A DNA stretch of 36,871 nucleotides from Stramenopiles sp. TOSAG23-3 (lineage: Eukaryota): contig LT642194.1 of the NCBI GenBank assembly GCA_900128585.1, positions 1 to 36,871 of the forward strand. The letters run 5' to 3'. The translations under genes were made by a program, and so were the position numbers. Below, piece by piece: positions 8,595 through 33,788 of this stretch. Below the pieces are notes generated by a model. That model searched no databases, was not told the DNA's origin, and was given only the letters and a program-made list of their open reading frames with translations. How positions within the stretch are numbered: the first letter of the stretch is position 1; every line of letters begins with the position of its first letter.

Positions 8595-9321
8595 TAAGCT
8601 ATTAGTGTAATAAATACGAAGAAATATACTACAGCTGTGACGATTGGATGAAAAAAAACCCGAGTAAAATTGTACTTACCTCTCTCTTTCTTGGTATGAT
8701 ATTATGAGAGTCGTCTTTAACCGTATATTATTGCCAATTATATATACTTTTATTTAATATTGGACTACGGTACTTCATTATATCAGAACCTGCGCAGCCT
8801 TTTTTTAGTATACGACTATAAAAATAAATATTATAATATTAATACTATTATTTATACCACGAGGGTAGTTCGTAGACCGACTACTATTATTATACCGGTC
8901 GGTAGTATTAATTAATTAATAGATGGAATTAAATTAAATTAATAGTCTTTCTTGTTGAATTCAAATATAAAAAAATTTTCACAATATAATAAAAAACCTC
9001 CTTCTTCTTCTTCTTCTTCCCTTCCTTCCTTTCAACAAAATTCACAAAGAAGAAAAAAACAACAATTATTATTATTTATTATTCTTCTTCTTCATCATCA
9101 ATTCAATTCTTCTTCTTCAAATTTTTTATTATGATGATTATTATTTATTAGTCTATATAAATATTATTAATAAACAATAAATACCGAACGAAAGAGTAGA
9201 AAAACAAAGGGCATTCCATTGTACACACACGAAAAAGAAGAAATAATTGCATTAGGTATTAGTCACTACTGTCTGTGTGTGTGTGTGTCATAGTTACAAC
9301 GAACAAATTTCAAACCAAACC

Positions 9322-10269
9322 ATGGCAGAGACAACGATAGAACAGTTGAACAAGCGTGCAAGGGGGTTGCTAGTGTCCATTTCTTGCCCGGCGTATGTGC
9401 TTCGGGACCCGAAACGGGGGCCAGACCGGAGGCGTTTGCTCCGGTGGCTTTACCTGAATTTTAGGTCGGTCCCGGACAATGGTGAGGCTGCGACAAAAGT
9501 TTCGATGGAGACGCTGAAGATGTGGGTCGAAAACATGGGAGTGCCGGGGCTAGACGTTGAGTCCGCCCATAGAAGTGCTGCAGTGCCGGAGAGTAGCGAG
9601 TCCCCGGAGACCGCGCTCAAAATAGAGAACGATTGCCTGCTCCTGATCCGTTTGATAGAAACGGTCGCTGCCAGCTCAATGCCAGGAAATGCTGAGTCTG
9701 ACCTGGACCTTATGAGCCTGATAACCTCCAACTACGATTCAGTTTTTTCCAAGGAATGCAACTTGTTTCCCATGGACCTAGAACATGTAGTCAATATGAA
9801 GGAGAGCTTAATCAACGATAAGGGCCAATACTTGGCAGAGGATACGGAAGGCTTGGAGACGATGGCGCATGAACTGCGTGCCGAGAACGTGCAGTTAAAG
9901 TACACGATTCAAGAGAAAATTAATGAAGGGTTCGAAAAGCAGCCCTCCACAACAGAGTTGGAGAAGATGGGGTCCCTCGCGTCGTCGAAACTGACAAACG
10001 CGTGCGATCGCTTGGTCAATGCGACGGACCGGTTCAACCGGTTTGCCCGCACAATGCTTGAGAAGTCGCTGACCAGCCAGGACAACGTCGTTCACGAGCC
10101 GTCCGATTATCCCGACTTTTCTGCCATTGGAAAAGGCGCTGCCGATACAAACAAAGAAATGCAGCAAGTCATCCGCACGCTGCAACTACTGAAGGATAGC
10201 CGCGAATCGTTCGAGTGCCTCGCTTATCAGGGCATGGAAAACTCCGCGCCGAATGTCGTCAGCCCGTAA
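9322..10269 (+). CDS. HAUS7: Augmin complex subunit 7 (AUG7/HAUS7) homolog
   Basis: Segments DRRRLLRWLY, LIETVAAS, DLDLMSLITSNYDSVFSKECNLFPMDL, ATDRFNR and IGKGA...LLKDSRES match my recollection of plant AUG7 in order and spacing. First ATG is at 9322 (ACCATGG); the ORF-track start is a GTG. Confidence 0.75.
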   Translation: MAETTIEQLNKRARGLLVSISCPAYVLRDPKRGPDRRRLLRWLYLNFRSVPDNGEAATKVSMETLKMWVENMGVPGLDVESAHRSAAVPESSESPETALKIENDCLLLIRLIETVAASSMPGNAESDLDLMSLITSNYDSVFSKECNLFPMDLEHVVNMKESLINDKGQYLAEDTEGLETMAHELRAENVQLKYTIQEKINEGFEKQPSTTELEKMGSLASSKLTNACDRLVNATDRFNRFARTMLEKSLTSQDNVVHEPSDYPDFSAIGKGAADTNKEMQQVIRTLQLLKDSRESFECLAYQGMENSAPNVVSP

Positions 10270-10410: not shown

Positions 10411-11658
10411 TTATTTCTCGTTCGAGCCTTCAGCGTCGTCTGTTACACTGACGCTTTTGGGAAAGTCTGAGTCTATGGCGACCTGGTACAGGTAATTGTC
10501 ATCGTTGTAGAATAAATTGCTATTGATTGGGTCAAACGTGCACTGGTAAGGGTAGCCCATAGCAAAACTATGGTTCGTGCTCAGGGCGGCGGGAATCCGT
10601 ATCGTCTTGTAAATGGCGCCAGCCTTCCAAATTCGGGCCGTGTTGTCCCGGCAAAGAAAGACAATGCCCGTCCGAACAACGCAAAAGCAAATGATTCGTG
10701 AATCCAGGGACAACGGTGGGTAGGCTTCCTCGTACGTTCCGGTGCGGTAAATCGTTACGGTTCTATCCATTTCGACAATGCAAATCAGGGAAGGCTCCTC
10801 GTCGTTCACTTTGTCGTACAAAAATTGGTAACCCCACGGGGCACGGCCATCGCGATACGAGATAGTCAAGCCGTCGCACTCGCCGGACGAATCGTTGTCG
10901 TTGGCGGGCCTGGCAAAGGGGGGCTCCGTCGGCAACTCCTGCACTGTAACGAACACTTCGTCCCCTGCGTATTCGTCCTGGGGCGTGTCTACGATGGCAA
11001 TTTTCTTCCCATCGAACGCTGCGACCAGCGCGGTGCCGTTGTAGTGTAGAACATCCGGGCTTATCTCCACCTCGACCTGGTTCGACAAATTGATGAAGAA
11101 AGACGGGAGGTTGCTCCTTGTGCAAAGCACCTTCTTTTTGTGCTGAAGAGTGTAGGACTCGTAGTACGATCTATATTGGCGAGCGTTCGACGCAAAAGGA
11201 AACGTCATCACGGACGATTTGTTCTTCAGGGTAATCTTTAATACCCGGCGGTTGCCGACCGAAACGAAACAGTCCGACCCGTCGCAGTGGAGCCCGCTAA
11301 TTTTTTCGTCTAAAATAGAGCACACTTTGATCCGCTTCCAAGACAATATTGAGGTCACAACTTTGCTATCGCCCTTGCTATTCAACACGCTTCGCTGCTG
11401 TTTCCAACCGAAAGAGTTGCTCCGCTTCCCTCCCCCTTCTTCGATATCGCTTGTTCCCGAAGCAGTCGCTTCCTGCGCGCCGGATTCCCTGGAGAAAATC
11501 AATACCCGTCCATTAACATGTCCCAAAAGAACAGATCCTCTCAACCCCGACTGCTCTTCCCCGCAAGAGCAAGTTTCCAAGCAAGTCACCGGATTTCCAT
11601 AAAAGGGTCCATAAACGACGGAACCCTCGGCCGCTTTAGAGTCCACCACAGCAGCCAT
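10411..11658 (-). CDS. Uncharacterised protein, probably a divergent beta-propeller (WD40-like)
   Basis: 415-aa open frame with coding-like composition and repeated short strand motifs (VTCLET, LLGHVNGRVLIF, MDRTVTIY, CRDNTARIW); first ATG at 11658. Confidence 0.6.
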   Translation of the reverse strand: MAAVVDSKAAEGSVVYGPFYGNPVTCLETCSCGEEQSGLRGSVLLGHVNGRVLIFSRESGAQEATASGTSDIEEGGGKRSNSFGWKQQRSVLNSKGDSKVVTSILSWKRIKVCSILDEKISGLHCDGSDCFVSVGNRRVLKITLKNKSSVMTFPFASNARQYRSYYESYTLQHKKKVLCTRSNLPSFFINLSNQVEVEISPDVLHYNGTALVAAFDGKKIAIVDTPQDEYAGDEVFVTVQELPTEPPFARPANDNDSSGECDGLTISYRDGRAPWGYQFLYDKVNDEEPSLICIVEMDRTVTIYRTGTYEEAYPPLSLDSRIICFCVVRTGIVFLCRDNTARIWKAGAIYKTIRIPAALSTNHSFAMGYPYQCTFDPINSNLFYNDDNYLYQVAIDSDFPKSVSVTDDAEGSNEK

Positions 11659-11885
11659 TTCACACACACTTTACCTCACAGAATTTACCTGAAAATTTCC
11701 TTTCTTTTTTCTAGGAAACACTTCACTCACTATCTAGTTTCTTCTGAATCAGTTTAGGCCATCATGTTTTAGTTTGGTTGGTTTTCGATTATCTCAAAAT
11801 GCAAATTAATTAATTTAATAATTGTGTAAAATATTATTATTATAATATTATTAAATAATAAAATAATAATAATAATTATTTTTTT

Positions 11886-12138
11886 AGAAGAGAAGAAGAA
11901 GTAAGAAGATGAAGAAGGAAGAAACGAAGAAGAAGAAAGAAGAAAAAAAAGAGAAAAAAAAAAAAAGCAAAGAAGAAAAAAGAAAAAAGATTAAAAAAAA
12001 AGAAAAGAAGAAAAGAAGAAAGAAAAGAAGAATAGAAGAAAAGAAGAAAAGAAGAAAAGAAGAAAAGAAGAAAAGAAGAAAAGAAGAAAAGAAGAAAAGA
12101 AGAAAAGAAGAAAGAAGAAGAAAGAAGAAGAAAGAAGA
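11886..12138 (+). repeat. About 250-bp polypurine tract with (GAAGAAAA)n microsatellite
   Basis: Almost exclusively A/G; a regular 8-mer GAAGAAAA array runs from about 12035 to 12110. Confidence 0.9.
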
Positions 12139-12166
12139 CGGCATGAAATATAATAATAATATTGAT

Positions 12167-12215
12167 GATCTATTATTAATATAAAAACAAGAAAATTGGC
12201 TGTTATTTAAGTAAT
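12167..12215 (+). repeat. Copy 1 of a short dispersed element (candidate micro-insertion)
   Basis: ATAAAAACAAGAAAATTGGCTGTTATTTAAGTAAT at 12181-12215; 25/25 identical to 16159-16183. Confidence 0.75.
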
Positions 12216-12411
12216 AATAATTTGATACTGCTGCTGCCTTCACTTCATTTCACACACTTCTGCTGCGCTTTTTTGTCGTGGTTCGTTCTCGTGCTGCCTC
12301 TGCCTCCCTCTCTGCTTTTCTGCTGCTGAAATTTTTTTTGAGGAGGAGGGGGACGGATAGTGGTGATGAATGTGTGACTAAACGTTCGCTCGTTTTGGGT
12401 TTAAATTAATA

Positions 12412-13698: not shown

Positions 13699-14502
13699 AC
13701 GTATGCAAACACACTCACGGTGCCACTCTGTATTTAAAGTAGAAAGGAAAATGTATATACGTGTGTATGTATCTATCGGAATCCTTGCTTTAACTTTGTA
13801 TTTTCCATTTTAATGAAATAATAAAATTGCAAACTTTCTTTACGGATGACAACAAAAACAATAATAGACGACTAAGGAAAATATTGATATTGAAGAAGAA
13901 GGATTTTTTTGTTGAAGGAGGAGGGGGAAAAAAAAAAGAAGTATTAATAAGAGGATGATGATGATGATTTTTTCTTCTTCTTTTTTTCAGCAGCAAAAGA
14001 ATGAAGAAGAAGATGATTTATTTTTCTAAATATTAATATCAATATCCATCTTCTCTCTCCTCTCTCATTATTCATTTCTTTTTTAAATTATTATTTTTTC
14101 AAAAAAACAACAACAACAACAACAACATCATATTAATTATTTATAAACGACGAATAACAAGGACAACAACAACAAAAAAATCATCTCAAAGAAGAAGAAG
14201 TCGTTCTTCTTCTTCTCTAATAATTAATAATATATATTATATCATCATCTAATAACTATATCATATTAATAGACGACTATCATCATTTTCAACAATTTCA
14301 TCATAATCCATTTCTATCCCACATCCGTCAAATGAAAAAGAAACAAGAAATAGAAACAATCGAGATGAAAAAGAAAGAGAGAACATGACAAGTAAGCAGT
14401 TTTGAAGTTTAATACGAATCGGTGAATATCGTTCGACGTGGATTGTAGAATATAACCAACTGTTGGAGTTGCGTTACCGCAAGCAAGTTCAAGGTCCGGG
14501 GT

Positions 14503-15972
14503 ATGGTCGATACTGGAATGGAAGGCCTCCCTTTAATGATGGTTGCCTTGGCGCAGGCGAAAACGGCCGAGGAAAGAACACAAATATTGAATAGCTTTGA
14601 CAAGGCGGCGTTAGAGGGATCTCCGCCCGTGCCTCAGAACACAATGTATACGAAAGAAAAGATGACTAGTAGTTTGGCCAAGGTTCTGGAAAATAATACA
14701 GAGGAAGGTTGGAAAGCGTACCTGAAAACGGTCACCCTCGAAGTCCTGGAAGCCACTCCGAGCTTCGAAGCCTGCCTTGAGGAGACCTTTCACACTGAAA
14801 CGAACCAAACGCGGGTGTACTCTGCTATGTGCAGTATGTTTGATCGTGTGAAGGGTCTGGAAAATAAGGAGAAGGTACCTTTGAAGGTGAAAGATACCGT
14901 GGCGTTGTGGACGCCCATTTGTAAGGGCAGCCCTGTCCTATCGCAGTTTTTGAACTCTGCAGTTTCACGCTTTTTGGACGGCAAGGCCGACGACGCCCTG
15001 GCGGCAGTCACCTCCTTCGAAGGTGCCGACGTAAATTCTGTGTGTTCTGCCTTAGCCTCGTGCATAGATTTGCGTAATTTTTGGGTGCTTCGGGACAGTC
15101 ATGACCCTAGCGTTGCACGCGTTTTGACCTCTGCCATCGCTAGCTTTGAACAGAGATTGGCCGACGCTATGGTCGAACACCACAGACGTGCCATTCTCTC
15201 CACTTTGTGTGTGGAAAATTGGGAAAGTTTTCGTCCCAACCGGTACAAATTTCAACGGTGTACCCCAACAGTTTCTATGTGGGTCGTGAATATGGTGGGA
15301 ATGGTTGGCGACGAAGACGGTCTGCTGTGTTTGTCTGACGAAAAGGTGAGGGTGTCTGTATTGGCGAAAGTTTTTCTCGCTACGTTTGAAACGATCACCA
15401 ACTTTTACTGTCGCCTGCCCCAACACTTGTCGCGAGGACGATGGACGCAGCTTCGTGTGGACGTACTGACCCTTGTGTGCGCTTCCATGGCATTTTTGAA
15501 GAGCAAGCGTTTGAACCTGTTCCAATTGGACGGCTTTTCCAGGGCATTAGACGGCCATTGCACAACTCTGTTGGGGCTGCTTGCACTTCTTGACGCTCCT
15601 GTCGATGCCGTCATTGGTTCCCTGTCGAGCATGGCAAGTGACCAGGGTGCGTGTTACAAATACCCCTCCGCCGGTGTGAAATCTTTGTGCGAATTTTTGG
15701 GGGTGGAAGAAATCGTGGCTGCGAAGGCTCCGTTAAGGTTTATGTCGGTCTCGAGTAGTTTCTGCAGCCTGTGTGGTATAGAAGGTTTTTGCACCGTTGA
15801 GATTGGAACGGGGCTGTGGAAAGCTTTGTTGGAAGAGCTTCCTTTCAGCAAGAAGGAATGTTTATCGATCGTTTCGATGCGTCATGAACTTGGTAGCTTT
15901 GATTATCCGCCGCTTGCAGAAGGGCAGGAGTCTGATAAGGCAAAATTGAGGGACTTTTTAGGCGTTGGTTAA
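14503..15972 (+). CDS. KIAA0825/DUF4495-like helical protein
   Basis: ENWESFRPNRYKFQRCTPTVSMW and SRGRWTQLRVDV resemble recalled DUF4495 motifs; 489-aa open frame. Confidence 0.55.
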   Translation: MVDTGMEGLPLMMVALAQAKTAEERTQILNSFDKAALEGSPPVPQNTMYTKEKMTSSLAKVLENNTEEGWKAYLKTVTLEVLEATPSFEACLEETFHTETNQTRVYSAMCSMFDRVKGLENKEKVPLKVKDTVALWTPICKGSPVLSQFLNSAVSRFLDGKADDALAAVTSFEGADVNSVCSALASCIDLRNFWVLRDSHDPSVARVLTSAIASFEQRLADAMVEHHRRAILSTLCVENWESFRPNRYKFQRCTPTVSMWVVNMVGMVGDEDGLLCLSDEKVRVSVLAKVFLATFETITNFYCRLPQHLSRGRWTQLRVDVLTLVCASMAFLKSKRLNLFQLDGFSRALDGHCTTLLGLLALLDAPVDAVIGSLSSMASDQGACYKYPSAGVKSLCEFLGVEEIVAAKAPLRFMSVSSSFCSLCGIEGFCTVEIGTGLWKALLEELPFSKKECLSIVSMRHELGSFDYPPLAEGQESDKAKLRDFLGVG

Positions 15973-16157
15973 GTGGGTGGGCGAAGGGAGATGCAAGAGT
16001 AAACCTGAGGGAGTAGAGGAGGGGTGGACTACGCACAGTCATTTTTGTAGTCTGAATTTAATATCTTAGTAAACTTATTCACGAAAGTAAATTACTTTTG
16101 TCAGTAAAAGCGTGTAAAGTTAGAGAGTTAGTAAAAGAGATTTAATTTCTTTTAACT

Positions 16158-16185
16158 GGAAAATTGGCTGTTATTTAAGTAATTA
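16158..16185 (+). repeat. Copy 2 of the short dispersed element, flanked by an 11-bp direct repeat
   Basis: TTCTTTTAACT (16147-16157) [GGAAAATTGGCTGTTATTTAAGTAATTA] TTCTTTTAACT (16186-16196). Confidence 0.8.
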
Positions 16186-16263
16186 TTCTTTTAACTTAAA
16201 AGAATTAAGAAAATATAATTTGTTTTAATGTTTAAATTTACTAAAGCTTTTATTATATAAACT

Positions 16264-16313
16264 TAAAACATACTATATATTTTGTTTTTAAAACATACTA
16301 TATAATTTGTTTT
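16264..16313 (+). repeat. 25-bp tandem duplication
   Basis: TAAAACATACTATATATTTTGTTTT / TAAAACATACTATATAATTTGTTTT, one mismatch. Confidence 0.85.
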
Positions 16314-16440
16314 ACATATATTTTGTTTTTTTTTATATCATATAAATTAACAGCTTTAAAAGTATGAGCTAAGAAGTACCAGGTTCTAAAGATCTGTACC
16401 CTTTCCTGGCCTTTGAACCTGTCACGTCCATAAAAACTTT

Positions 16441-18672
16441 TTAGTGGTGGGCGAAATCCTCGGAATGTTTCTCGATCAACTCTCGAAACTCTTCCACGGA
16501 TATGGAGCCGGACTGGTCCTCGTCCAACTCTCTTGCGATTATTGCTATGTCGTCAACGCTCAAGTCGTTCCCACCAAAGTCTTGCATTTTGGAGATGAAC
16601 TCTTCCACCGAAATTGAACCAGACCCGTCGCTGTCGAAAATTGCAAACAAGTTCTCACACAGCTCGTCTATCGTCGGCTCGCTGCCGTCGTTTTGAGCGA
16701 TGATCCACTGGATGAACTCTTCCTTCGACACCGTTCCGTCGCCGTCCAAATCTAAAATTTGCATCATGTTCTCAACATCCTCTTTGCCACAGGTTTGACC
16801 TATCGACTGCATTAACAGTTTCATTTCGACCGGATCGATGCTGCCGGAGTTATCGGCGTCTACGACTGCCCACGCCTGCTCTGCATCGGCCAACTGTCGT
16901 TTGAGCGCCGCAGACTGGCCTGGCGTCGAATTAAACTGTGCGTTTCGCTGCAACACCGACGGGCGGCGGGCGTCCTGCGACGATTTCTTCCGTTTATTTT
17001 TCTCTTTCATGTTTAGCTTCCGCGCGTTGGACAGCACTTTCATTATTCTCAACGCCTTCTCTGTGCGCTGCCTTCGTAGAACGTTCTTTAACGTGTCCTT
17101 GTGGTGGTGCCTGAACGACCCGATGCTGCAGCTCTCTACGTGCAGCCGCACAATGAGTGGTACCTTCATCAGAAACACGACTGGTGGAGCATACGCGACG
17201 GACAGTTCTACAATTACCCCTAGGATTCCAAAAACCCCCAACTCGTTGGTCTCCTCCCATAGGCGCTGGGCGTACAGCATGGTGAAGACCGCCAAGTAAA
17301 TGCTCATTCCGAGCATCAGCTGGCGAAGCAGAAACACGTGGAAGTCCGTTCCCTTCTGCCTGAACCAAAAGAGCATTTCGTGGCGACTGGGCAGGCTGTG
17401 GTTCCCCACCCAGAAAGCGACGAACCAATTGTTAGGCCGTGGGGTGCTCGTTTCGTACTGCGGCTGGCGAGTCCCAGGGCTGTCCCAGCCCGCCCCTTCC
17501 TCTAATAAATGCGTGTCTTCAGAGTCGGCGTCAACGGCCTTTCCTTCTTCAACGTCCTCGGCGACGGCACATTGTTCGCATATAGAACTCAATTTCCCCT
17601 CCAAGAGGTGCGAGAAGAGCACCAACGTCCATGCAAAAACGATCCAAATCCACGTCAAGGCGTCCATGTTGCCTTCAACAGCCTCGATAATGCAGTACCA
17701 AACGATTAGGATAAACTCTAGGAAGAGCCAGCTAGAGACGGGGACTTCCGTGATTTCCGCGACCTCCACTCCTAAAACCTCGTACAAGTACAATGCGAAG
17801 GGGAAATCGTAGTTCAGCGCCTGGGCGGGCTTGTCGGGGTTGGCAACAAACACGCTCCGAATAGAACTGAACACCATCTGCGACTTTGGTATGAGTGCGC
17901 CGTGGTGATGGTACGAATGCCGCACTTTGTCAAAGCTAGACATGCAGGTGTCGTCCCAATACTTCCACTGCTTAAACGTTCGGATAGAAATTTTAAGGTT
18001 CGCCAAGCCGAGCATGATAAACAAAATCATAACGAGAAACAGAGTCATGTGGATGGTTTCGAATAATTCTTGCAGCTTAGCTTTTTTTTCGTTCACGCAA
18101 AGAAGCGGCCTTTCCTCGTGTTTGCACACGTGCCAGCACGAGTTTCCGTCGCAAAATAGATGGATCGACAGCGTCTGCAAGAGGTTGGTCTTCGACACTA
18201 GGAACGTTATCAATCCCAGAAACCCCAGAACTGTCAGCTCCGAAAACAGGGAAGTCACAATTGGTCGAAGACTCCTCGAAGCGTGTTCGACAACAACTTC
18301 TTTTCCCTTTTCGAAAAGTATAGTCACTGCTGCCAGAAACGACAGGCTCAGAAATGCCGCAGACGCGACGGCGTTCCACTCTCCCCCCTCTTCTTCGCCG
18401 CCTGCATTTGGGGCGTGGGCACTTCTGTGCCGCCTGTAATCCCTGTTGTTTTTTGAGTGATGCTTCCACCGGTGAAGCGTGTAGTTTCTGCGCAAGACAG
18501 GGCTTGGCTTTGACGCAGCCGGCAACGCTTTGGATGCAGCAGTGGCCGATACTTTCCGCGCAGCCTTCGACCGTTCCAATGCACTTGGCAATGAAATATT
18601 TTTTGCACTAGTGCCAGACACTTGAAATGCGAAGAAGATAGCAATTGCCACAACGACAAAAAGCTTCGTCAT
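16441..18672 (-). CDS. MLO-like 7TM protein with a C-terminal calmodulin-like (4 EF-hand) domain
   Basis: MLO motifs ELTVLGFLGL, IHMTLF, WKYWD, FPFALYL, LFWF; EF-hand loops DADNSGSIDPVE, DLDGDGTVSKEE, DSDGSGSISVEE, DEDQSGSISVEE; hydrophobic N-terminal signal peptide. Confidence 0.85.
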   Translation of the reverse strand: MTKLFVVVAIAIFFAFQVSGTSAKNISLPSALERSKAARKVSATAASKALPAASKPSPVLRRNYTLHRWKHHSKNNRDYRRHRSAHAPNAGGEEEGGEWNAVASAAFLSLSFLAAVTILFEKGKEVVVEHASRSLRPIVTSLFSELTVLGFLGLITFLVSKTNLLQTLSIHLFCDGNSCWHVCKHEERPLLCVNEKKAKLQELFETIHMTLFLVMILFIMLGLANLKISIRTFKQWKYWDDTCMSSFDKVRHSYHHHGALIPKSQMVFSSIRSVFVANPDKPAQALNYDFPFALYLYEVLGVEVAEITEVPVSSWLFLEFILIVWYCIIEAVEGNMDALTWIWIVFAWTLVLFSHLLEGKLSSICEQCAVAEDVEEGKAVDADSEDTHLLEEGAGWDSPGTRQPQYETSTPRPNNWFVAFWVGNHSLPSRHEMLFWFRQKGTDFHVFLLRQLMLGMSIYLAVFTMLYAQRLWEETNELGVFGILGVIVELSVAYAPPVVFLMKVPLIVRLHVESCSIGSFRHHHKDTLKNVLRRQRTEKALRIMKVLSNARKLNMKEKNKRKKSSQDARRPSVLQRNAQFNSTPGQSAALKRQLADAEQAWAVVDADNSGSIDPVEMKLLMQSIGQTCGKEDVENMMQILDLDGDGTVSKEEFIQWIIAQNDGSEPTIDELCENLFAIFDSDGSGSISVEEFISKMQDFGGNDLSVDDIAIIARELDEDQSGSISVEEFRELIEKHSEDFAHH

Positions 18673-19485
18673 GATCCCTCAGTGCTCGCGTTACACCCAG
18701 TCAAGTCCTTCCCTTCGATATACTTCCGCTTTAATTGCTTCGTTCGAGAAACGTTAGTATTGAGGTCCCACGTTCTGTATCCTTCACACCGATCCTTTCC
18801 ATACAAGACGTGTTTATTGTGACGTAACAATCTAGATCATTTTTTTTCCTCTTGAATAAATATACAATTATTCAATTTGCAATATGTGACATATTGACGG
18901 CATGATTAGTCTATACTTGGTTTTTAACATGTGGGTATATCATTGTACATTAAACAATTTATTTATTAATAAGAAGTGGAATAGCCCACCTCCTATTATT
19001 ATAAAAATTTAAATAGATAGGAGGGGGAATAGCATCATTATTAATAATTAGCTTTTTTTTTTTTGTATCTTTTTTTTTCTTCTTTTCTTCTATTAATATT
19101 ATTATTTTTTATTATAATAATACTTCTCAGCGTTTACCGCCACGGATTTTTTTTATTTTTTTTATTTTTGCATTTTTTTTTTCGATCGAAAAGTAGATAA
19201 ATATTACATAATCACAACATTACAATACATTGAATAACGTTGGAATAACTAGATGATTATTATACTATTTTTTATCCTCTTCTTCTTCTTCTATTTTGGA
19301 TAAAAAAAGTTTTACTTCTTTTGGTCCTTTTTTACATTTTAATAGCAGACGACTTATGTTGTGTGAATTATTCGGTATATGAGTTTGCCTTTTGTTCTGC
19401 CCAATTACTACTTAGTACTACCTCGTACCGTACCATGCCCCCACTTTCTTCTGAGATTTCTCACGTGGAAAGTGGAAATAACATT

Positions 19486-20901
19486 TTACTGCGAGTCGGG
19501 GATCCGCGCTTTGTTGAATTCTGCGGCATCGAATTCCATCACCGCGCGCTCGTGGGTAAACGTCATAAATCCCCATTCCCCTCTGTAATTCCCATACCCA
19601 GATTCGCCAAGGCCCCCGAACGGTAAATTCTCCGCAAGCATGTGCGTAATGCAGTCGTTCACGCAAACGCCCCCGGAGCGTGACGAATTGAGAATTTTCT
19701 GCACCTCGGCGTCGTCTCCGGAGAAAATATACAGGGCAAGCGGGTTAGGCAGCTGCGCTTCCTTCCGGAGCACCTGGTCCAAGTCATCGTACTGGATCAC
19801 TGGGAGGACCGGCCCGAACACCTCCTCCACGAGCAGCATGCACTTGTCGTTGGTCGGGTTGAGAACAATAGTGGGCGGGATGTATAAATCCGTCTCGTCC
19901 GGGGTTTGCCCGCCCATACCCTCCAATAAGTTCCTGCCGCCATGGTCGGCCGGGTCCCGGTACTCCACCAAGCGCTTGTGGTGCCTACTATTGATGATTC
20001 GGGAGTAGTGCTTGCTCTTCTGCGGGTCCTCTCCAAAATACTTCACTACCGCCTCCCTCACCAGCCGGGTGAACTCATCTATGTCAATCCGCGAGTCCAA
20101 ATAGACGTGATCTGGGCTCACACAAAACTGTCCCACGTTTTTAAACTTGCTGTCGACCAGCTTCAGGACCGCGGTTTCCAGGTTGGCATTTTTCGTAAAG
20201 TACACAGGGTTCTTGCCGCCCAGTTCCATGCAGACAGGGGAGAGCTGGTCGGCCGCGGTTTTGCAAATTGCACGCCCGGCCGCCGCGCCGCCCGTGAAGA
20301 AGACCATGCCCCAGTGCGATTTCAGCAGCTCATGGACGAGGTCGCGCTTCCCAAGGGCAATTTTGACGTACTTTCTGCATATCGGGTCTTTCTCGAGGTA
20401 CTCCTCCCCGAGGACTTTGACCATTACGGCCGACGTTGCCTTGCACTGGTCGTTGCACTTGAGAAACGCGGGGCACCCGGCTGCGATTGCCGTAACGATC
20501 GGTTTGATGTGCAGCGGGAGCGGGAAATTCCACGTTCCTATCACTAGCGCCATTCCCCGGGGCTCCCGTCGCACCAAAGAGCGCCGGGAGGTGGACCCGG
20601 GGCCCACCGGTGGCGTCCAGCTCTCCTGGTCTGCGCAAAGGCGGTCCATATTTTCAAGGTAGTACTTGCACGTCCCAATGGTGCCGCCCCGGATCAGGTC
20701 GTGGAACTTGGCGGGCCGCCTCAGGTCGGTGTACTCGGCCTGGCGGAAGTCGTCCGCACGCTCTATCAGACAGGCCTTGATTCGCTCGATAACGTGCTTC
20801 CGGTGCGGAATTGGTATGGTTAGCTGAGGCACGGCTTGAAGCTCCGAGACCATCCCCTTGAGCGTGGGAATAGTTGTAAAGTCCGCGGACAGGGCTGACA
20901 T
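19486..20901 (-). CDS. Aldehyde dehydrogenase, class 3 (fatty/aromatic aldehyde)
   Basis: WNFP, FFTGG, ELGGKNP, GQFCVSPD (catalytic Cys), EEVFGP, PLALYIFS, LPFGGLGESGYG. Confidence 0.93.
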   Translation of the reverse strand: MSALSADFTTIPTLKGMVSELQAVPQLTIPIPHRKHVIERIKACLIERADDFRQAEYTDLRRPAKFHDLIRGGTIGTCKYYLENMDRLCADQESWTPPVGPGSTSRRSLVRREPRGMALVIGTWNFPLPLHIKPIVTAIAAGCPAFLKCNDQCKATSAVMVKVLGEEYLEKDPICRKYVKIALGKRDLVHELLKSHWGMVFFTGGAAAGRAICKTAADQLSPVCMELGGKNPVYFTKNANLETAVLKLVDSKFKNVGQFCVSPDHVYLDSRIDIDEFTRLVREAVVKYFGEDPQKSKHYSRIINSRHHKRLVEYRDPADHGGRNLLEGMGGQTPDETDLYIPPTIVLNPTNDKCMLLVEEVFGPVLPVIQYDDLDQVLRKEAQLPNPLALYIFSGDDAEVQKILNSSRSGGVCVNDCITHMLAENLPFGGLGESGYGNYRGEWGFMTFTHERAVMEFDAAEFNKARIPDSQ

Positions 20902-21232
20902 CGTCTTGCGTGTTGGTTCTTGTCGGGGGAGACTGTTGCTTGCTCCTTGTTTTGAGACAATATATATTGTACTGGCTTTTCCTTCAAAACTATTAAAAAT
21001 TAATAGTATAGAATGAAAAACAGAAAAGCGTGCAGAAAAAGGGACACAGTACGAACCATCCCTTAAATTAATTTACATTTGATTCGTTCGGTTATAGTCG
21101 TCTATCATTATCCAATCAATCATAGTTAATCAATGTCAAATTTTGTAAATTGGTAAATAAAAAGTCCTAATAAATAATAATAATAAAAAATAATATATCT
21201 GGTTCTTCTTGCATCTTTCTTTCTTCTTCTTC

Positions 21233-21267
21233 GGTGGGGGGTGGGGGGTGGGGAGGTGGGGTGGGGG
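21233..21267 (+). promoter_or_regulatory. Potential G-quadruplex in the ALDH / 7TM divergent promoter
   Basis: GGTGGGGGGTGGGGGGTGGGGAGGTGGGGTGGGGG: five tracts of 4 or more G with short loops, in AT-rich DNA. Confidence 0.5.
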
Positions 21268-21853
21268 TTCCTCTATTCATTCGGCACACCTCGTACCCTA
21301 CATAAAACACCATTTGTCAATCGTTATAATACATTAGATAGTAGGTAGGCTACAGGTAGTAATAATTTTATCTAAAAAAGAAAAAGAGAAGAAATTGAAT
21401 TATTTATTATTACAGGTACGTAGGTAATGAATTTTCTGATTAATTCTTTTTTTTTTTTTATGTAATTTGGAGTTTGACTACCAAGTTTGGTATTATTAAT
21501 AGTCAAAGCGTTGTCTTTTTTTATTCGCTTTTTTCTAACTTATTTTTTACTGCTGGACCTTTATTATGCTAATTAAAATTAATTAACATAAACACATCAT
21601 CATAATAAATAAAAAATTATTATTATTTCAATTATTTGTTGTTGTTGGTGATGATGATGAGACACATTCTTTTTATTCTTTTTGTGTTCTGTTGACATTT
21701 CTATTGCTATTAATTGAAAGAAATCGGTATCGTTTTTAGTAACAGAAGAAACATATACGCCCACCCCGATTTTAATTTTAACTTCCTTTCGGGTCGTGCG
21801 CACAACCACAGCCTTCAACCGCCGCGTGCGTGTACATAGCGAGGCCGTGACTG

Positions 21854-23782
21854 ATGGCAGCAGTGAGGGACATAAATAGAAACCAGGTGCAACCGCGCGA
21901 TGGGGCGGTTCCTAGAGAACCGGGGCGCCCGCCGCCTGCAGATGGTCAAGGTGGGGGTTTCTGGGGGAGAGTATCTGAGTACTGCGGGAACAAAGTGTGC
22001 CGCTGCCCCGGAAGTTCTTCCCAACGCTTTCGATATGCCCTGGTTTATTTTTTCGTCCCCCTGTACATTGCATTTTTTATTTTCCTCGCGTGGGGGCCAC
22101 AAGGTCAGATCGCGCCTATGCGAGGCGCCCAAAACAAATACTTAGAAAAGCGCGAGTATTCCTATGAACACTCGGACATCTACGAGCTGCCTGGGTTTGG
22201 CTTTGCATTCAATGGCTCCGTGGATATGTCCGTGTCGGCCCTGTACCCCACCCTTGGCGCCTCGAAAGTAGGGAGCCTAACCCGCGTCATGCTTTACTTG
22301 TACATTTGTGACTACGCAATGTACATGAAGGAGTGGACGACTGCGCTTGATGGTAGGCGGCCGGCAAGGCCGCAAGGCAGAGTGGACGAGAAGATCTCCC
22401 TGTGTGGCACGGATTGGTACCACTACCACCAGCACTGTGCCTCGTTTCCTCTGCTCCCTGTAAATAACTCTTCCTCCGACCTTTATGAGGCCGAAGCCGT
22501 GTTTTCGTCCAACATCAACACCGACCCTGCGCGGAAAGAGGCAAGGTATTACACCGCGCTGCTAATGAACTGTGAATTAAAAGGCTACCCGCTCGCCAAG
22601 TCACGGGATTGCAAGTTGGACGCCGACGGCAAAGGGGAAAACTGCACGTACGTGCCGCCCATGAGCAGCGAGGGAATAAGGATCGACCTGTCGTATACGT
22701 ACAAGAACAAACCGCCGCTGCTCTACCTGTCCTCCGTGCAAGAGATTTTTCCGTTCATGTACTCCCTCGGGGCGCTCGTCTGGGTGGTTCTCTCCGTCTT
22801 ATGGGTCGTCAACACGTGGGTCTACAAGAACGCTCGTGGCATAGACCTGCAGTGGCACTTTTCGCTGTTCATCACCTTCAAACCTATCAATTTCTTGTAC
22901 AAATTATTGTTCTGGGAAGTCGTCCGGGAAGGCAAAGCGAACCGCCACTTTTACATGGTGCTCACGTTGACCATCAACTGCCTGTACTACTGCTTTCTGT
23001 GGGAGACCATGATGCGGGTGGCGCACGGGTGGATGATCGTTAGGTACCGCTTGACGCCCCAGGCAAGGTTTCACTTGTACGTATCGCTGATCATATGGGC
23101 GTTTGGGAACTTTGTCTTCAGCTATTTTTACCAGTTTCAGGAGGAAGGTTTTGGCATTGTCCGGACGGACTTGGGGCAAGACATCGTGGCCTACTACCTG
23201 GTGGCGTTTGCTTTGTTGGCGACTGGGATCTCGTACACTGTGATCCTGATGACGGTCTGCTTGGCGACGTCAAACTTGAGCCATCAGATGTCGGACCAGA
23301 TAAACATGTTGAGGGGTCTAGGAATGAACGCCCGAGGCACGTTCGTTGCGAACAGAAAACGTGCCTTCCAGTACATGAGCGTCGGCTTTTCGTCGTACCT
23401 GATCCTCTCGTTTATCACATGGTTCGTCATCGTTGCAATCGAGGACAGCGCAACCCTCTACCCTTGGCTGAACGATTTGGTGGACGAATGTTTGGAATCG
23501 ATCTTTTTGCTCTGGGTCATGTGGACTTTCCGCGCCCGTAAGTTTAACAACGTGTCGCTTCAGATAGAGGGCACCCCGGCGGAAGACCCCACCATTGACA
23601 TCAATCAGCCGATCACGTCCTCTAGAATCTGTATTTTGAACCCCTCGGAGAACAACGAGTTCGATGGGATAGAGAGGCGAATTTCCCTTGGAACCCCGTC
23701 CCGGTCTTCCGTGAGTCCGTTGGATGGGAAGAAATACCAGGTGGAGCAGAAGGAGGCTGCCAATGAACCGCCTGCCCCATAA
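21854..23782 (+). CDS. GOST-family (GPR107/GPR108/TMEM87-like) seven-transmembrane protein
   Basis: N-terminal TM, Cys-containing lumenal domain, then 7 TMs with YLSSVQEIFPFMY, VAHGWMIVRYRL and terminal WTFR. Confidence 0.75.
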   Translation: MAAVRDINRNQVQPRDGAVPREPGRPPPADGQGGGFWGRVSEYCGNKVCRCPGSSSQRFRYALVYFFVPLYIAFFIFLAWGPQGQIAPMRGAQNKYLEKREYSYEHSDIYELPGFGFAFNGSVDMSVSALYPTLGASKVGSLTRVMLYLYICDYAMYMKEWTTALDGRRPARPQGRVDEKISLCGTDWYHYHQHCASFPLLPVNNSSSDLYEAEAVFSSNINTDPARKEARYYTALLMNCELKGYPLAKSRDCKLDADGKGENCTYVPPMSSEGIRIDLSYTYKNKPPLLYLSSVQEIFPFMYSLGALVWVVLSVLWVVNTWVYKNARGIDLQWHFSLFITFKPINFLYKLLFWEVVREGKANRHFYMVLTLTINCLYYCFLWETMMRVAHGWMIVRYRLTPQARFHLYVSLIIWAFGNFVFSYFYQFQEEGFGIVRTDLGQDIVAYYLVAFALLATGISYTVILMTVCLATSNLSHQMSDQINMLRGLGMNARGTFVANRKRAFQYMSVGFSSYLILSFITWFVIVAIEDSATLYPWLNDLVDECLESIFLLWVMWTFRARKFNNVSLQIEGTPAEDPTIDINQPITSSRICILNPSENNEFDGIERRISLGTPSRSSVSPLDGKKYQVEQKEAANEPPAP

Positions 23783-24685
23783 GCAAGCTTTAAAAAAAAT
23801 TAGAAAAGGAACACGATCCCTTCTTGTTTTGTTTTGAATTTTGATAGACAGTCTTACTTCGTAAATAAAATTAAATACTTATATATAATCACGAATAACT
23901 TTACACGATTTACAAATTTTTCTTCTCAGAATCTTTTTTATTTCGATGGCGGTTACAGTCTAGACGAATCCCCACTCACCTCCTCCTCGAAAAAATCGGA
24001 AGAATATATGTTCGTGTTAATAATAGGGTACTATCTAACACGGTAGAATGCTACAATCTATTATATTGTAATGTACTATATAATACAATATTTTATAATA
24101 TTATTAATGTATACAATATAATTGTATTCTATGTATGTAAAGTTAATCTTAGGCACCACTCAATTTTGAGTTCATGTTTATGATGCTGTGACTATCCTAA
24201 TAAGGTATAATGAATATATATTGACATAATATATTTCTCATTTCTTTGGTTCATTTTTGTTTAGTAATAATCCTGGTAGTCTAATAATAGAAAAACAATC
24301 TTTAAATTATTATTTTATTTTATTTATATTAAATTCCTTATTATATAGATCTAGCTTATAGGAGGAAGAAAATAATCAAATTGAATGGTCTTCTTATTAC
24401 TTCCTGGAGGAATATAATACAATCCCTCCCTCCCTCCCTCCAGACAGTTTTAGTACTAGAAAGGGAATAGGAAGAAGAAGATTTATTAATAATTTTTACA
24501 CAAGTGGAAGTGAAGAAACAAATGAAACAAAAGAAGAGTGCGTAGAAAGTCATGTTCCTTTCTTTGCATTTGTGTATGTATATATGGAATAGAGTGAGTG
24601 TAAACGAGAAGAAGAATATTGAAACGGGTAGTGATATTTAGTTAGTTAAAGAAAGACAGAAAACGAATCACAATAAAGTTTCAAG

Positions 24686-25723
24686 ATGCGTCCCATATTA
24701 TTGAAAGGGCACACACGTGCACTAACGCACGTCAAGTACAACCAAGATGGAGACCTATTATTCACTTGTTCCAAAGACAACCGCCCGACCCTTTGGTACT
24801 CGGACAACGGCGAGAGGGTAGGAACCTACGAGGGGCACAACGGTACCGTCTGGGGGTGTGATGTGACATTCGACAGCACACTTCTGCTGACTGCGTCTGC
24901 CGATATGAGTTGTAAAATGTGGAACGTTCGCACCGGCGAACAGTTGTGGTCGTTGGATACGCCAGGGCCGTGCCGGTGGGTGCAGTGGTCCGAGGGGAGC
25001 GGAATGTTTGCTGTGTTTGTAGACCCATTCAAAGGCGCCAAAGCGCAGATTTGGATTTTTAAAATGCCCCAAAGCATGGACCCGAGCGAACTAGGCAAGC
25101 AGCCGTTTGTCGTATGCCAGGAGCAACTGGAGTTAAATAAGGAGAGAATCATTCGCGGTTTGTGGACGCCGTTGAACAGAGAGATTTTGACTGGCGCAGA
25201 GGACGGCAAGCTTCGCTTGATAAACCCACTGAACGGCGACCTTGTCGCAACCCACGAGGCCCACACCAAGCAGATCCAAGACATTCAGTACAACAAGGAG
25301 AAAACTCTCTTTATCACAGGATCCCGAGACTTTACTTCCAAGCTGTTCGACGCGTTCACCTACCAGTGCTTGATGACGTTTAAGACCGATAGGCCGATCA
25401 ACGGGGCAGCCATGTCCCCCATTAAATTGCACATTATGACAGGTGGAGGGCAAGATGCCATGTCTGTAACCACGACAGCGGGCCAGAGTGGTAAATTCGA
25501 GGCCAGGGTGTTCCACATGGTGTATGGAGATTTGTTGGGTTTGATCAAGGGGCACTTCGGTCCAATTAATACATTAGCGATCCACCCCGATGGGACCAGC
25601 TACGTTAGTGGAGGAGAAGATGGTTACGTGCGCCTTCATCACTACGATGAAGAGTACTTGAATTTGTCCGACGAAGCCGATAAAATCGCGGAGAACGCAG
25701 CTGCCATGGCCGGTGGAAAATAA
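24686..25723 (+). CDS. EIF3I: Eukaryotic translation initiation factor 3 subunit I
   Basis: MRPILLKGHTRALTHVKYNQDGDLLFTCSKD, GGGQDAMSVTTT, GKFEARVFH, KGHFGPINTLA, SGGEDGYVRLH. Confidence 0.97.
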   Translation: MRPILLKGHTRALTHVKYNQDGDLLFTCSKDNRPTLWYSDNGERVGTYEGHNGTVWGCDVTFDSTLLLTASADMSCKMWNVRTGEQLWSLDTPGPCRWVQWSEGSGMFAVFVDPFKGAKAQIWIFKMPQSMDPSELGKQPFVVCQEQLELNKERIIRGLWTPLNREILTGAEDGKLRLINPLNGDLVATHEAHTKQIQDIQYNKEKTLFITGSRDFTSKLFDAFTYQCLMTFKTDRPINGAAMSPIKLHIMTGGGQDAMSVTTTAGQSGKFEARVFHMVYGDLLGLIKGHFGPINTLAIHPDGTSYVSGGEDGYVRLHHYDEEYLNLSDEADKIAENAAAMAGGK

Positions 25724-26066
25724 GCAATAAGCATGCTCGAAACGAAGGGGGTACGTCCCATGGTGTACAATAACAGTAATACGAACGAAATTAAATATAT
25801 ATATTCGTAAAGTGTTGTTTATATTTTATTAAAACGAATTACTTGGTACTGTATTTTTAATTACTCAAATAGGGGGAAAGTAACGCCGCCTTTGCTATTT
25901 ATATGTTAAACAATTACAAACAAAAATTAGAAATAATAATAATAAAATTATTATATATAATAGGCAATGATGTTAATATTTTTTCTGAATAAACATAATA
26001 ACAAACGAACAAGTTGAAAAAAAGAGAAACTTTCCGTTTTTGAGGTCCCTTGAGCCCATTTCAGTT

Positions 26067-27902
26067 CTACCGTTTTACACGCGACCGTTCCTTTACCTTT
26101 CTTGCTATCTCTCGCTGAACCTTCTCGGCAGCTTCACGCTGCCGTTGTTTCAGCACCTCGCGCCGAAGCACGAACTCGATGTCTGCCGGGATTGGAAACC
26201 CTGCCATTCCGAGAACCTCGTAATGGTGCCGGACTTCCTCTAACAGCTCTTCGTCTTGTGGCGGCGGGTTCTCCGGGTGAAAGACGCCTGTGCCCGCCAG
26301 CATATGCTCTATTGAATAGTCCCTGTAGTCCCCCGTCGCTTTCTGAAACAAGCAGATCCCTAGATTAGCACGAGCTTCGTGCAGCGCAGGGTCCCTTTCT
26401 AACGCAGCCCTGTAATGCTTGATTGCCGTTTCATCGTCGTGCACGTTCTGGGCCTGTATCCCCAGCTCGTAATGTGCTGCCGCAACTGGCCCTTGGCCGC
26501 TTTCAATAATTTCTTCGTACTGGCTTCTGCTGTCCGTCAACGGCATTAGCTTTGGGGCTTCTTTTCTTTTCCCTGGGAATACCAGCGGTTTCTTCTCGCT
26601 ATTGCTTGCGTTTAAGGACGATTGAAAGACCAGCAGCTGTTTCGTCGCTGGTTCGATCTCCGGAGTGTCGGGAAGGCTGGCGGTTAAGTCCGCCTCGTCC
26701 TTCTTTTCTTCCTCCTTCTCTTCTTCCCCCTTTTTTTCTTCCTCTTTTTCCTCTTTACCCATCTCTTTTTCGCCTTTCTGCTGAGTCTTTGCCGCATTCA
26801 GCAAACCCATCATGCCCCCACCCGCGGACTTCTTTTTCCCAAAAAGAGAGGTGACCGTTTTCTTCTTTGCGGTTGACACGGCGGCCGGGTCTACGGGCTC
26901 TAATTTGACACGATCGTCCGTTTGCTTACCACCCATAAGTTTCGTTCTCGTGTCACGCTGCAATATTAAATCCCCCACCTTTTTCCTCACTTCCATATCT
27001 GAAGGGCGGGCGAACAGCGCTGCCTGATAATGAGACATCGCTTTGCCGAACTCTTCCCTGGCCTGGTAGGCCACCCCAAGGTTATAGTGAGCCCAGTAGT
27101 CGTTCGGCTCGGTGTCAATGACACCTTTCTGGTCCGCAACGAACGCCTTCCACCGCTCTTTTTCTAAACTCCCGCAGGGGGTTGCATCTTTGACGGCCTT
27201 CGTTCCTTTTAGCACAGGCCATTTTGCCCTTAAAGCTTCCATTTCTTCCCTCTTTCTTGCTTCTATTTCAGCCTTTATCCTGGCTTCTTCTTCCAAGCGA
27301 AGTTGCTTTGCTGTTTTCCGCGGTGGTTTTTTCTCCTCTTTATCTTCGTCGTCCTCTGGAGATTCTTCCTTGCCCTCCGTTTTCTCCTCCTTTCCCTCTA
27401 ATTTCCCCTCCTCTCCCTCCCCTTTATCGTCTTGCCCCTCGCTGTCTTTTCCGTCACCCCCATCACCTTTTTTGTCGCCTTCTTGCCCGGTACTTTCGTC
27501 TTCCTTTTTCGGGGCAGACGGCTGCTTCGGTTCTTTTTTTTTTTTTGGTTTGACCCTTGCCACTTCCTCACTACTATCTACACTATCGAACTCGTCCGAG
27601 TCATACTCTTCGTCCGAGTCTTCTTTCTTTTTCTTCTTTCCGAACCCTAATTTGCTCAAGTTGAAACCTTTTGTGCTAATTTGTGGCATCTGCTTCTCTT
27701 TTATCGGAGGCAGCCCTTTCTCGCGGCGTTTTATATTTTTCTCTAACTTCGCCAACGTCCTCTGCAACGCAGCCTTCCTAATATTGTTCAGTTCCCTCTG
27801 TCTCTGCGCTCCCGGGTTCATCAATGCAGCCAGACTGGCCAGGCCCATGCCTGGCTTTTTTGTACCAGTCTTCTTTTGAATGAGTTTTCGCAGAGCCTTC
27901 AT
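26067..27902 (-). CDS. TPR-repeat protein with long Lys/Glu-rich disordered regions
   Basis: TPRs AHYNLGVAYQAREEFGKAMSHYQAAL and AHYELGIQAQNVHDDETAIKHYRAALERDP...ARANLGICL; first in-frame ATG at 27902. Confidence 0.8.
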   Translation of the reverse strand: MKALRKLIQKKTGTKKPGMGLASLAALMNPGAQRQRELNNIRKAALQRTLAKLEKNIKRREKGLPPIKEKQMPQISTKGFNLSKLGFGKKKKKEDSDEEYDSDEFDSVDSSEEVARVKPKKKKEPKQPSAPKKEDESTGQEGDKKGDGGDGKDSEGQDDKGEGEEGKLEGKEEKTEGKEESPEDDEDKEEKKPPRKTAKQLRLEEEARIKAEIEARKREEMEALRAKWPVLKGTKAVKDATPCGSLEKERWKAFVADQKGVIDTEPNDYWAHYNLGVAYQAREEFGKAMSHYQAALFARPSDMEVRKKVGDLILQRDTRTKLMGGKQTDDRVKLEPVDPAAVSTAKKKTVTSLFGKKKSAGGGMMGLLNAAKTQQKGEKEMGKEEKEEEKKGEEEKEEEKKDEADLTASLPDTPEIEPATKQLLVFQSSLNASNSEKKPLVFPGKRKEAPKLMPLTDSRSQYEEIIESGQGPVAAAHYELGIQAQNVHDDETAIKHYRAALERDPALHEARANLGICLFQKATGDYRDYSIEHMLAGTGVFHPENPPPQDEELLEEVRHHYEVLGMAGFPIPADIEFVLRREVLKQRQREAAEKVQREIARKVKERSRVKR

Positions 27903-28555
27903 GTTACTTTGCTCAAGCGATCGCGGTATGTACAAGGACAAGGCTTGCCCCCCACTATCTCCAGATAAAAGTAACCCTCTGGGAGTGGCGGTGCCAATTC
28001 GGTTGAGGTTTCAACGCCTTCCTGCCCTGCTCCAAACAATCTCAAATCGACGTGTATATACAAGTATATATCTCACAGACTAAACCCTGCTCGAAATTTT
28101 CTTTTTCCACTTATCTGTCTTACACAAAAGAAAGTGGATTAAAACCATATTCTGTCATTCTCTCACTCACACACAGACAAATCCGCATGAGCATAAAAAT
28201 GCCCATCAACACGCACCGCACCATTGTTGCTTTTTTTCTACTTCCGCTCCTCCCACCACCGCCATCGCGCACTTTTTTTTTTCCTTCGCCTAAACATATT
28301 TTGCTTAATGCTGTGATGATGTTACATAAATAAAAATACGTTACCAGGGGGAGGGAAAAACGTCTATTTTTAGTTTCTATACTGTGTCCCTTGTGAATAT
28401 AATATTATGGACAAACCGAAATATTATTATTGTGATGGTATTATATAGTAGTGTTACATAATTAGGGTTTTCTTCTTCTTCGGACGTCGAGCGTCGAGCG
28501 TCGAAGAAGCGAAGAAGAGAAGAGATTGCAGAAGTCAGAAGAAGACTTTTTTTTT

Positions 28556-32102: not shown

Positions 32103-32170
32103 ATTTTAACTCCGTGTGTGAAAATAAATGTTTTAAAAACAAATCTGTGAATGGTATGAGGAAGCTAAAT

Positions 32171-32285
32171 TTAATTACTTCAATAACAGCCAATTTTCTT
32201 GTTTTTGATAATAACAAAAAAATAAAAAAACAAATTATTATATAATAAAAACAAGAAAAAAATTGGCTGCTATTTAGGTAATTAA
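32171..32285. repeat. Copies 3 and 4 of the short dispersed element, arranged as an inverted pair (MITE-like)
   Basis: 32171-32206 TTAATTACTTCAATAACAGCCAATTTTCTTGTTTTT (minus copy) and 32245-32285 ATAAAAACAAGAAAAAAATTGGCTGCTATTTAGGTAATTAA (plus copy). Confidence 0.8.
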
Positions 32286-32396
32286 CAAATTATATGTAGT
32301 ATGCTAAAATAATACTGAACGAATGCTGTTATTTAGAACACTTCTTAGAAAATATCAATATAAACTATTTAAGAACTTGAACAATCTATCCTCTAC

Positions 32397-33746: not shown

Positions 33747-33788
33747 ATTTGGACTCGTATATAATTTATTTGGACTCGTATATAATTT
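33747..33788 (+). repeat. Perfect 21-bp tandem duplication ATTTGGACTCGTATATAATTT x2
   Basis: Identical units at 33747-33767 and 33768-33788. Confidence 0.9.

Follow-up and report, generated by a model that had tools for sequence, protein, structure and literature searches.

A recurrent 33-nt motif behind genes of a marine picoeukaryote is probably the 3' tail of a LINE-like retrotransposon family

Introduction

When a near-invariant motif of 33 nt recurs four times in a short stretch of eukaryotic DNA, each time in the 3' flank of a gene, it may be a signal that the genes use or the residue of something that inserted beside them. Here, we ask which of the two it is. The stretch analysed (the window, 36,871 nt) is compact eukaryotic DNA with 16 long ORFs, nearly uninterrupted, and AT-rich spacers in between; the ORF products include kinase, LRR, thioesterase, EF-hand, aldehyde dehydrogenase, eIF3I, TPR and ankyrin proteins. 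Four of the long ORFs (9256-10269, 10411-11670, 21851-23782 and 30681-32102) had no Pfam family at E<=0.001, and two names earlier given to neighbours of the motif, ‘MLO’ and ‘oxygenase’, are without Pfam support, with EF-hands only in 16441-18678 and no match in 30681-32102. The segment 30600-33800 was matched in many marine metagenome runs. The ankyrin-repeat ORF (28568-29707) contains an internal duplication of 296-nt units at 663 nt spacing and 90% identity, together with further units of 138-198 nt at 77-87% identity; the duplication suggests recent expansion of the repeat units.

Our best explanation, which we hold with a probability of roughly 0.85, is that the 33-mer is the constant 3' tail of a LINE-like (non-LTR) retrotransposon family of a marine picoeukaryote, lying within the last ~45 nt of the element 3' UTR, and that the window copies are 5'-truncated, dead stubs.

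Results

Four copies in the window

The 33-mer matches the window at 12183-12215 (plus strand, 0 mismatches) and 32174-32206 (minus strand, 1 mismatch), and its 25-nt core also matches 16159-16183 (plus, 0 mismatches) and 32258-32282 (plus, 3 mismatches). The core has 4 matches in the window versus 0 in 100 shuffles, and a search of the window with a degenerate 20-mer returned the identical four sites; the 33-mer, core and 20-mer matches all bear out the four positions listed in the first-pass annotation. The copies and the features around them are as follows, with strands given in the sense of the element.

12183..12215, minus strand: copy 1, probable 33-nt retroelement 3' tail, 3' end at 12183; exact 33-mer, subfamily not assignable
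12151-12166 and 12212-12226, no strand: bracket at copy 1, imperfect direct repeat TAATAATAAT(A)TTGAT, read from the sequence
16158..16185, minus strand: copy 2, 28-nt insertion of the tail core; 25/25 core match, bounds from the flanking 11-bp repeat
16147..16157, no strand: left target-site duplication (TSD) of copy 2, 11 bp, TTCTTTTAACT; direct repeat, AGTTAAAAGAA on the sense strand
16186..16196, no strand: right TSD of copy 2, 11 bp, TTCTTTTAACT; direct repeat
16262..16334, plus strand: three head-to-tail 3' tails of a second family (...TTAAAACATACTATATAATTTGTTTT), in the same spacer as copy 2
32153..32206, plus strand: copy 3, probable 54-nt subfamily A 3' end (GGTATGAGGAAGCTAAATTT plus tail), 3' end at 32206; from contig matches and alignment
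32247..32285, minus strand: copy 4, tail of ~39 nt with two substitutions and a longer T/A run, 3' end at 32247; from core match and alignment
32286..32311, minus strand: possible degenerate second-family tail abutting the 5' end of copy 4; 3 mismatches to a 13-nt core, weak

Measured to the stop codons of long ORFs, the copies lie at distances of 51-256 nt; two convergent spacers hold three of them and a tandem spacer the fourth. The stop at 12412 is 197 nt from copy 1, those at 15972 and 16441 are 186 and 256 nt from copy 2, respectively, the one at 32102 is 51-72 nt from copy 3, and the one at 32397 is 112 nt from copy 4. A purine-rich microsatellite of ~250 nt (11885-12140), composed of (GAAAAGAA)n and GAA-like runs, separates copy 1 from the start side of the ORF at 10411-11670.

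The copies differ in how clearly their boundaries can be read. Copy 2 carries a clean 11-bp target duplication, and the element length derived from it agrees with the extent of homology to other copies; relative to the consensus 3' end, copy 2 stops 7-8 nt (TTGTTTT) short, and metagenome contig joints also break at 16185, the edge of this copy. For copy 3, many contigs from four runs match exactly 32153-32206 with unrelated flanks on both sides; it aligns with subfamily A copies at three other loci (L045, L105 and L064), and no flush TSD was found for it. A near-repeat, ATATAAT(AAT)TTGTT, whose two versions differ by one AAT and which is part of a second-family tail, flanks copy 4; this copy thus appears to have inserted into an older tail of that family. 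In copy 1, homology to other copies stops at most ~48 nt from the 3' end, and no flush TSD of at least 9 nt was found. The direct repeats that had been proposed to bracket it do exist, with both TAATAATAAT..TTGAT strings present and enclosing 45 bp; since the left repeat lies 16 nt beyond the constant end of the element, they are not a flush target-site duplication. The right repeat overlaps the GTAAT of the element, and the bracket sequence is (TAA)n-like and of low complexity.

A dispersed family with one constant end

Scanning metagenome contigs with the degenerate core gave at least 119 loci. These loci and the window together hold at least 136 pattern matches, and in at least 84 of these (4 in the window) TTTTCTTGTTTT or a close variant follows. 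The remaining matches, which have no TTTTCTTGTTTT continuation, were rejected as family members; their contexts are unrelated and mostly GC-richer, and they were taken as chance. Viral contigs gave 8 motif matches, none with family flanking sequence, which were likewise judged to be chance, and the motif strings occur in none of the papers searched.

Read on the sense strand of the element, all copies end ...ATTACTTAAATAACAGCCAATTTTCTTGTTTT-3'. A core-anchored alignment showed that past the T-run the flanks are unique to each copy, and that on the opposite side the sequence runs into at least three recurrent subfamilies (A, B and C), which have only the last 40-45 nt in common. Copies vary solely in their upstream reach, from 28 to more than 460 nt. 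Pairwise BLAST of 79 non-redundant copies yielded homology extents of 37-337 nt from the common 3' end with no preferred length, 53/79 copies being shorter than 100 nt; the longest pairwise alignment spans 464 nt (L027 versus L079). The first-pass annotation had the GTAAT end as shared and the other end as variable. The polarity is the reverse: the constant end is the AAAACAAGAAAA end (AAAACAAG/CTTGTTTT), and beyond GTAAT other copies carry on into more of the element, as copy 3 does up to 32153. Contig loose ends before 32153 are mutually similar, indicating that the element continues past the GTAAT side in other copies.

Contigs from three RNA runs and one DNA run were mapped onto 14400-33800. 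The high copy number that had been predicted holds qualitatively, in that the scan gave at least 119 loci and the summed word depth over the element stands far above that of the flanks in all four runs, depth itself being no copy number; the summed word depth at 32153-32206 in the DNA run, 172 versus 2.7 for the contig spanning the locus, is not a copy number either. Depth spikes near 19053-19086 and 21429-21461 are T-runs or low-complexity sequence and unrelated to the 33-mer family. Long-range contig joints (for example, 16185 to 32153) were considered as deletions and rejected; the contigs derive from other family copies. For context only, PMC13242883 describes, for one picoalgal genus, genomes with ~10% repeats, few of them classifiable.

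Target-site duplications and junctions

Each 3' junction was compared with the 700 nt upstream of it for the longest exact repeat, and a probe shifted 40 nt downstream served as the control. Exact direct repeats of at least 10 nt (10-15 nt) flank 29/79 copies as compared to 1/79 in the shifted control, an excess of the kind that the first-pass annotation had proposed looking for. Approximately 5-6 of these 29 long repeats include element sequence of neighbouring copies and are not clean TSDs, and 30 of the 79 copies are without an exact repeat of at least 8 nt. For 14 of the 29, the element length derived from the repeat and the extent of homology agree to within 12 nt, as in the pairs (repeat/homology) 336/337, 193/193, 171/175 and 111/110. 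The flanking repeats of many copies are 8-15 bp long and placed where homology to longer copies ends.

Examination of 51 clean 3' junctions demonstrated a terminal T-run of 4-5 T in 37 of them; the ending is CTTG plus the T-run, not poly(A) or a simple repeat. The base after the T-run is A at 40 of the 51 junctions, G at 11 and C at none, and many flanking repeats start within the T-run. Apart from the T-run followed by A or G, the flanks are unrelated, and the copies lie behind many different genes. No empty-site alleles were found: among the loci there were solely duplicate assemblies of the same site, none overlapping the window, and one long DNA contig across 29242-33563 retains copies 3 and 4.

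A longer, ORF-bearing parent

At four loci (L027, L039, L022 and L016), frames ending in ...SSWSAL and a stop codon terminate ~110 nt before the 3' end of the element, and this position of the ORF end upstream of the tail fixes the sense strand. Using tblastn with P0157 and P0002, C-terminal ORF pieces were located directly upstream of the tail at eight loci (L027, L039, L016, L022, L079, L078, L084 and L011); a piece at L072 is a short fragment. A search for longer database proteins extended the ORF to 776 aa (P0002) and returned three shorter proteins as well. P0002 comes from a 2860-nt contig and is thus cut off, so that the ORF has at least 776 aa. At E<=1e-3, 265 representative proteins match the ORF, and the best 150 of the 265 are 58-419 aa long, such short matches being expected of a multi-copy, decayed element in short contigs. 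A full-length element was not found by the longer-protein and representative searches, by tblastn of the fetched loci, or among viral and prokaryote contigs.

An alignment of 40 fragments (A1) displays CxC..C..H..C followed by HN, QADG, WDVHF and K..KY. In PMC4838377, the R2 restriction-like endonuclease (RLE) is described as a CCHC followed by a PD-(D/E)xK fold with RH (helix 1), PD, D/E and K..KY (helix 2). The RG.W motif was not recognised in alignment A1. The AF2 model of the nuclease region has a core pLDDT >90. Foldseek gave no match at E<=0.001 for this model, with R2 chains ranking 2, 5 and 6 among many PD-(D/E)xK cap-snatching endonucleases; a structural aligner gave its best Z of 5.7 for PD-(D/E)xK cap-snatching endonucleases and Z of 3.5-4.2 at 13-15% identity for the C-terminal parts of R2 proteins (230 residues), all below the safe level (Z<8). 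The ORF C-terminal domain is likely an R2-type restriction-like endonuclease.

The upstream fragment P0157 is linked to the ORF via overlaps with P0156 and P0005. It starts MLAAFADDLTIV (FADD) and reads ..VELLGIPI.. further on, which we take to be reverse transcriptase (RT) motifs C and E, respectively. The nearest Atlas (language-model) clusters of P0157 are annotated as ‘reverse transcriptase domain-containing protein (fragment)’ with scores of 0.91-0.93; its AF2 model, at pLDDT 40.5, is unusable. The distance from FADD to the stop is ~1100 aa, and the corresponding region of R2 is much shorter. That P0157 is the RT part of the element is a lead, not proof. Pfam returned no match on P0002, P0157, P0155, P0156 or P0005 even at E<=10 and none on the 51 members of alignment A2, a zf-primase hit on ORF pieces (E 0.0095) falling below the family cut-off, and PDB sequence and profile searches with the ORF pieces gave no match.

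Placement behind genes

For the spacer analysis, genes were taken as ORFs of at least 150 aa on 70 loci, each chosen for holding a copy; these gene calls are crude. The spacers divide as follows.

Convergent spacers: 59 in total (33 kb), 37 with a copy, 41 copies
Tandem spacers: 63 in total (46 kb), 12 with a copy, 13 copies
Divergent spacers: 40 in total (33 kb), 0 with a copy, 0 copies

The description of the copies as confined to gene 3' flanks is thereby upheld. The density of TTTT[AG] sites differs just 1.4-fold across spacer types, and a comparison of spacer types within the same contigs should be robust. Each of the 12 listed tandem-spacer copies is closer to the upstream stop (44-489 nt) than to the downstream ORF (276-1319 nt). 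Relative to that upstream gene, 8 of these copies are in sense and 4 in antisense, so that the proposed reading in the sense of the neighbouring gene is no rule. The 3'-flank restriction would follow either from an integration preference for termination zones or from selection removing promoter insertions, two causes that the data do not separate.

A second tail family and nested stubs

The second family (...GAGAGTCTTAAAACATACTATATAATTTGTTTTTT) likewise has a constant 3' end and a variable 5' extent, and its upstream sequence falls into two subfamilies. The 869 kb of fetched DNA contain 19 places with this tail. In addition to the three window tails, 17 places lie in the loci, which include L008, L019, L027, L064, L084, L087, L093, L096 and L105. 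First-family copies often begin right after a second-family T-run (L084, L064, L105 and window copy 4), and at L081 and L068 they are stacked on one another. Nested stubs (L081, L068, L084, L064, L105 and L108; window 32207-32311) sometimes share one target duplication. Earlier insertions seem to create fresh target sites, giving rise to nested arrays, and such a process could alone concentrate stubs in few spacers. One further locus, L089, reads alike on both strands around its copy and has two identical tRNA-Arg(TCT) genes at mirror positions; it is probably a palindromic assembly artefact.

Discussion

Taken together, a constant 3' end, variable 5' truncation, TSDs of variable length and a longer, ORF-bearing parent sustain the ‘retroposed, truncated SINE/LINE end’ that was one of the two initial proposals. 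A working model for the family can be put forward. The element protein would recognise the tail on its own RNA, and this recognition would account for the retention of one tail by at least three subfamilies with different upstream 3' UTRs. The protein would then nick AT-rich DNA at a T-run before A or G, and the U-rich RNA end may prime reverse transcription on the nicked target, that is, target-primed reverse transcription; repeats that start in the T-run and junctions of a T-run with A or G fit priming in which the U-rich RNA end pairs with the nicked target. Reverse transcription would usually abort within 40-100 nt and leave dead stubs. The stubs accumulate solely in gene 3' flanks. Several observations count against the LINE reading: the tail is U-rich with no poly(A), copies 1 and 3 are without a flush TSD, and the 7-8 nt missing from the tail of copy 2 are not accounted for by plain initiation at the 3' end of the RNA. 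So do the lack of a full-length copy and of any Pfam or PDB sequence match for an RT, the nuclease fold matches below the safe level, the length from FADD to the stop, the 30 copies with no exact repeat of at least 8 nt, the long repeats that are not clean TSDs, and the failure to find empty-site alleles.

The other initial proposal was a 3'-end-processing or 3'UTR element, and a cis-acting signal for 3'-end processing, termination or 3'UTR regulation, selected at many genes, would indeed be expected to lie in gene 3' flanks and be absent from divergent (promoter) spacers, as the copies are; the motif is near-invariant between copies, and the element depth is far above the flanks in three RNA libraries, although contigs do not show transcription. 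We nevertheless regard this reading as very improbable. Just 4-5 of the 16 window gene 3' flanks carry the motif, its orientation in tandem spacers is mixed (as counted above) over distances of 44-489 nt, and young insertions would be near-identical without any selection. The tail RNA folds no better than shuffles (z-scores 0.5 to 1.0), giving no stable structure, and no Rfam family matches in the window. Target sites are duplicated, and the copies are truncations of an ORF-bearing element; the initial proposal of a processing element is not supported, given the count of flanks and these duplications, with secondary exaptation of some copies possible. We give hardly any credence to the reading of the stubs as ends of a DNA transposon or MITE, with the 33-mer as terminal inverted repeat (TIR). 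Copies 3 and 4 do form an inverted pair 29-40 nt apart, and inverted copies are present at some other loci (L012 and L019). However, the copies have a single constant end, with a different partner end in each, and their flanking repeats, at 8-15 bp, are not of fixed length; this reading fails on both counts. Moreover, the constant ends of copies 3 and 4 face each other with their interiors outward, the opposite of a TIR pair, and the parent ORF reads toward the tail and shows no transposase family.

A different question is whether many or most of the short copies stem from the LINE-like element itself or from non-autonomous RNAs, SINE-like or consisting of the 3' UTR only, that carry the same tail and were mobilised by the LINE in trans. 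SINEs are known to share tails with their partner LINEs; the presence of at least three subfamilies common only in their last 40-45 nt is in keeping with it, as is the frequency of 150-230 nt copies in subfamily B. Such copies lack a common 5' end, though, their extents (149, 152, 175, 182, 187, 193, 197, 217 and 220 nt) forming a continuum, and B-type tails also occur behind the ORF end in L016 and L015. Nor was a tRNA, 5S or 7SL head found inside the elements by Rfam (8 loci) or ARAGORN (12 loci), which returned only the two tRNA-Arg genes of L089, ~600 nt from the copy. We consider mobilisation in trans on this scale improbable, though it may account for part of the copies.

Returning to the LINE-like family, its placement invites the proposal of active targeting, with the termination zones of protein-coding genes sought out via, for example, the chromatin or a DNA feature of Pol II terminators or earlier junctions of a T-run with A. 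We put this forward tentatively, as a possibility with the odds against it. Were it true, much 3' intergenic DNA would be stacked retroposon tails, some possibly serving 3'-end formation now, and the family would be a LINE of RLE type whose specificity is regional (‘behind genes’) and not for a sequence. The total absence of copies from promoter spacers offers a clean system in which to set LINE integration against selection in small genomes.

An apparent mystery motif would thus turn out to be an ordinary, if uncharacterised, transposon family and not a new type of signal. The 45-nt tail and the ORF fragments provide a handle for annotating a class of repeats that standard libraries miss, Pfam being blank on the ORF. 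In compact marine picoeukaryotes, gene 3' spacers can be mosaics of retroposon stubs of 30-80 nt, and such mosaics matter for 3'UTR annotation, for motif discovery, where stubs mimic conserved signals, and for the interpretation of depth spikes in metagenomes.

Among known systems, the nuclease motifs point to a place for the family on the RLE (R2-like) side of the non-LTR retrotransposons. As in R2-type RLE elements, a Cys/His cluster precedes a putative PD-(D/E)xK-like nuclease near the C-terminus of a single large ORF; a K..KY motif lies in the helix after the third strand, by comparison with PMC4838377; all copies have a defined, non-poly(A) 3' UTR end in common and are 5'-truncated; and there are weak structural matches to R2 C-terminal regions. 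Neither the RT itself nor any N-terminal DNA-binding domain was among the recovered fragments. PMC4640811 gives a single specific target, such as rDNA or microsatellites, as the insertion site of R2 and most RLE elements. The present family, unlike them, is scattered across many gene 3' flanks, with a preference only for a T-run before A or G and with TSDs of 8-15 bp, and it is strictly confined to the zone behind genes. Its region from the RT-like motif to the nuclease also exceeds that of R2 by several hundred residues.

The tRNA-gene-targeting elements of Dictyostelium and the Ty elements of yeast exemplify targeted integration into safe zones of compact genomes. The present family resembles them in its strong avoidance of coding and promoter DNA and in copies that cluster and nest; it differs in that the zone is 40-500 nt behind protein-coding stops and in that selection alone could give the pattern. 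‘Stringent’ LINEs form LINE/SINE pairs with a shared, specifically recognised 3' tail. In contrast to those pairs, no stable stem-loop is predicted in the tail described here, and no SINE head was found. The likeness to them lies in the tail of 40-45 nt, which is identical in subfamilies A, B and C despite their different upstream sequences and fits recognition by the RT.
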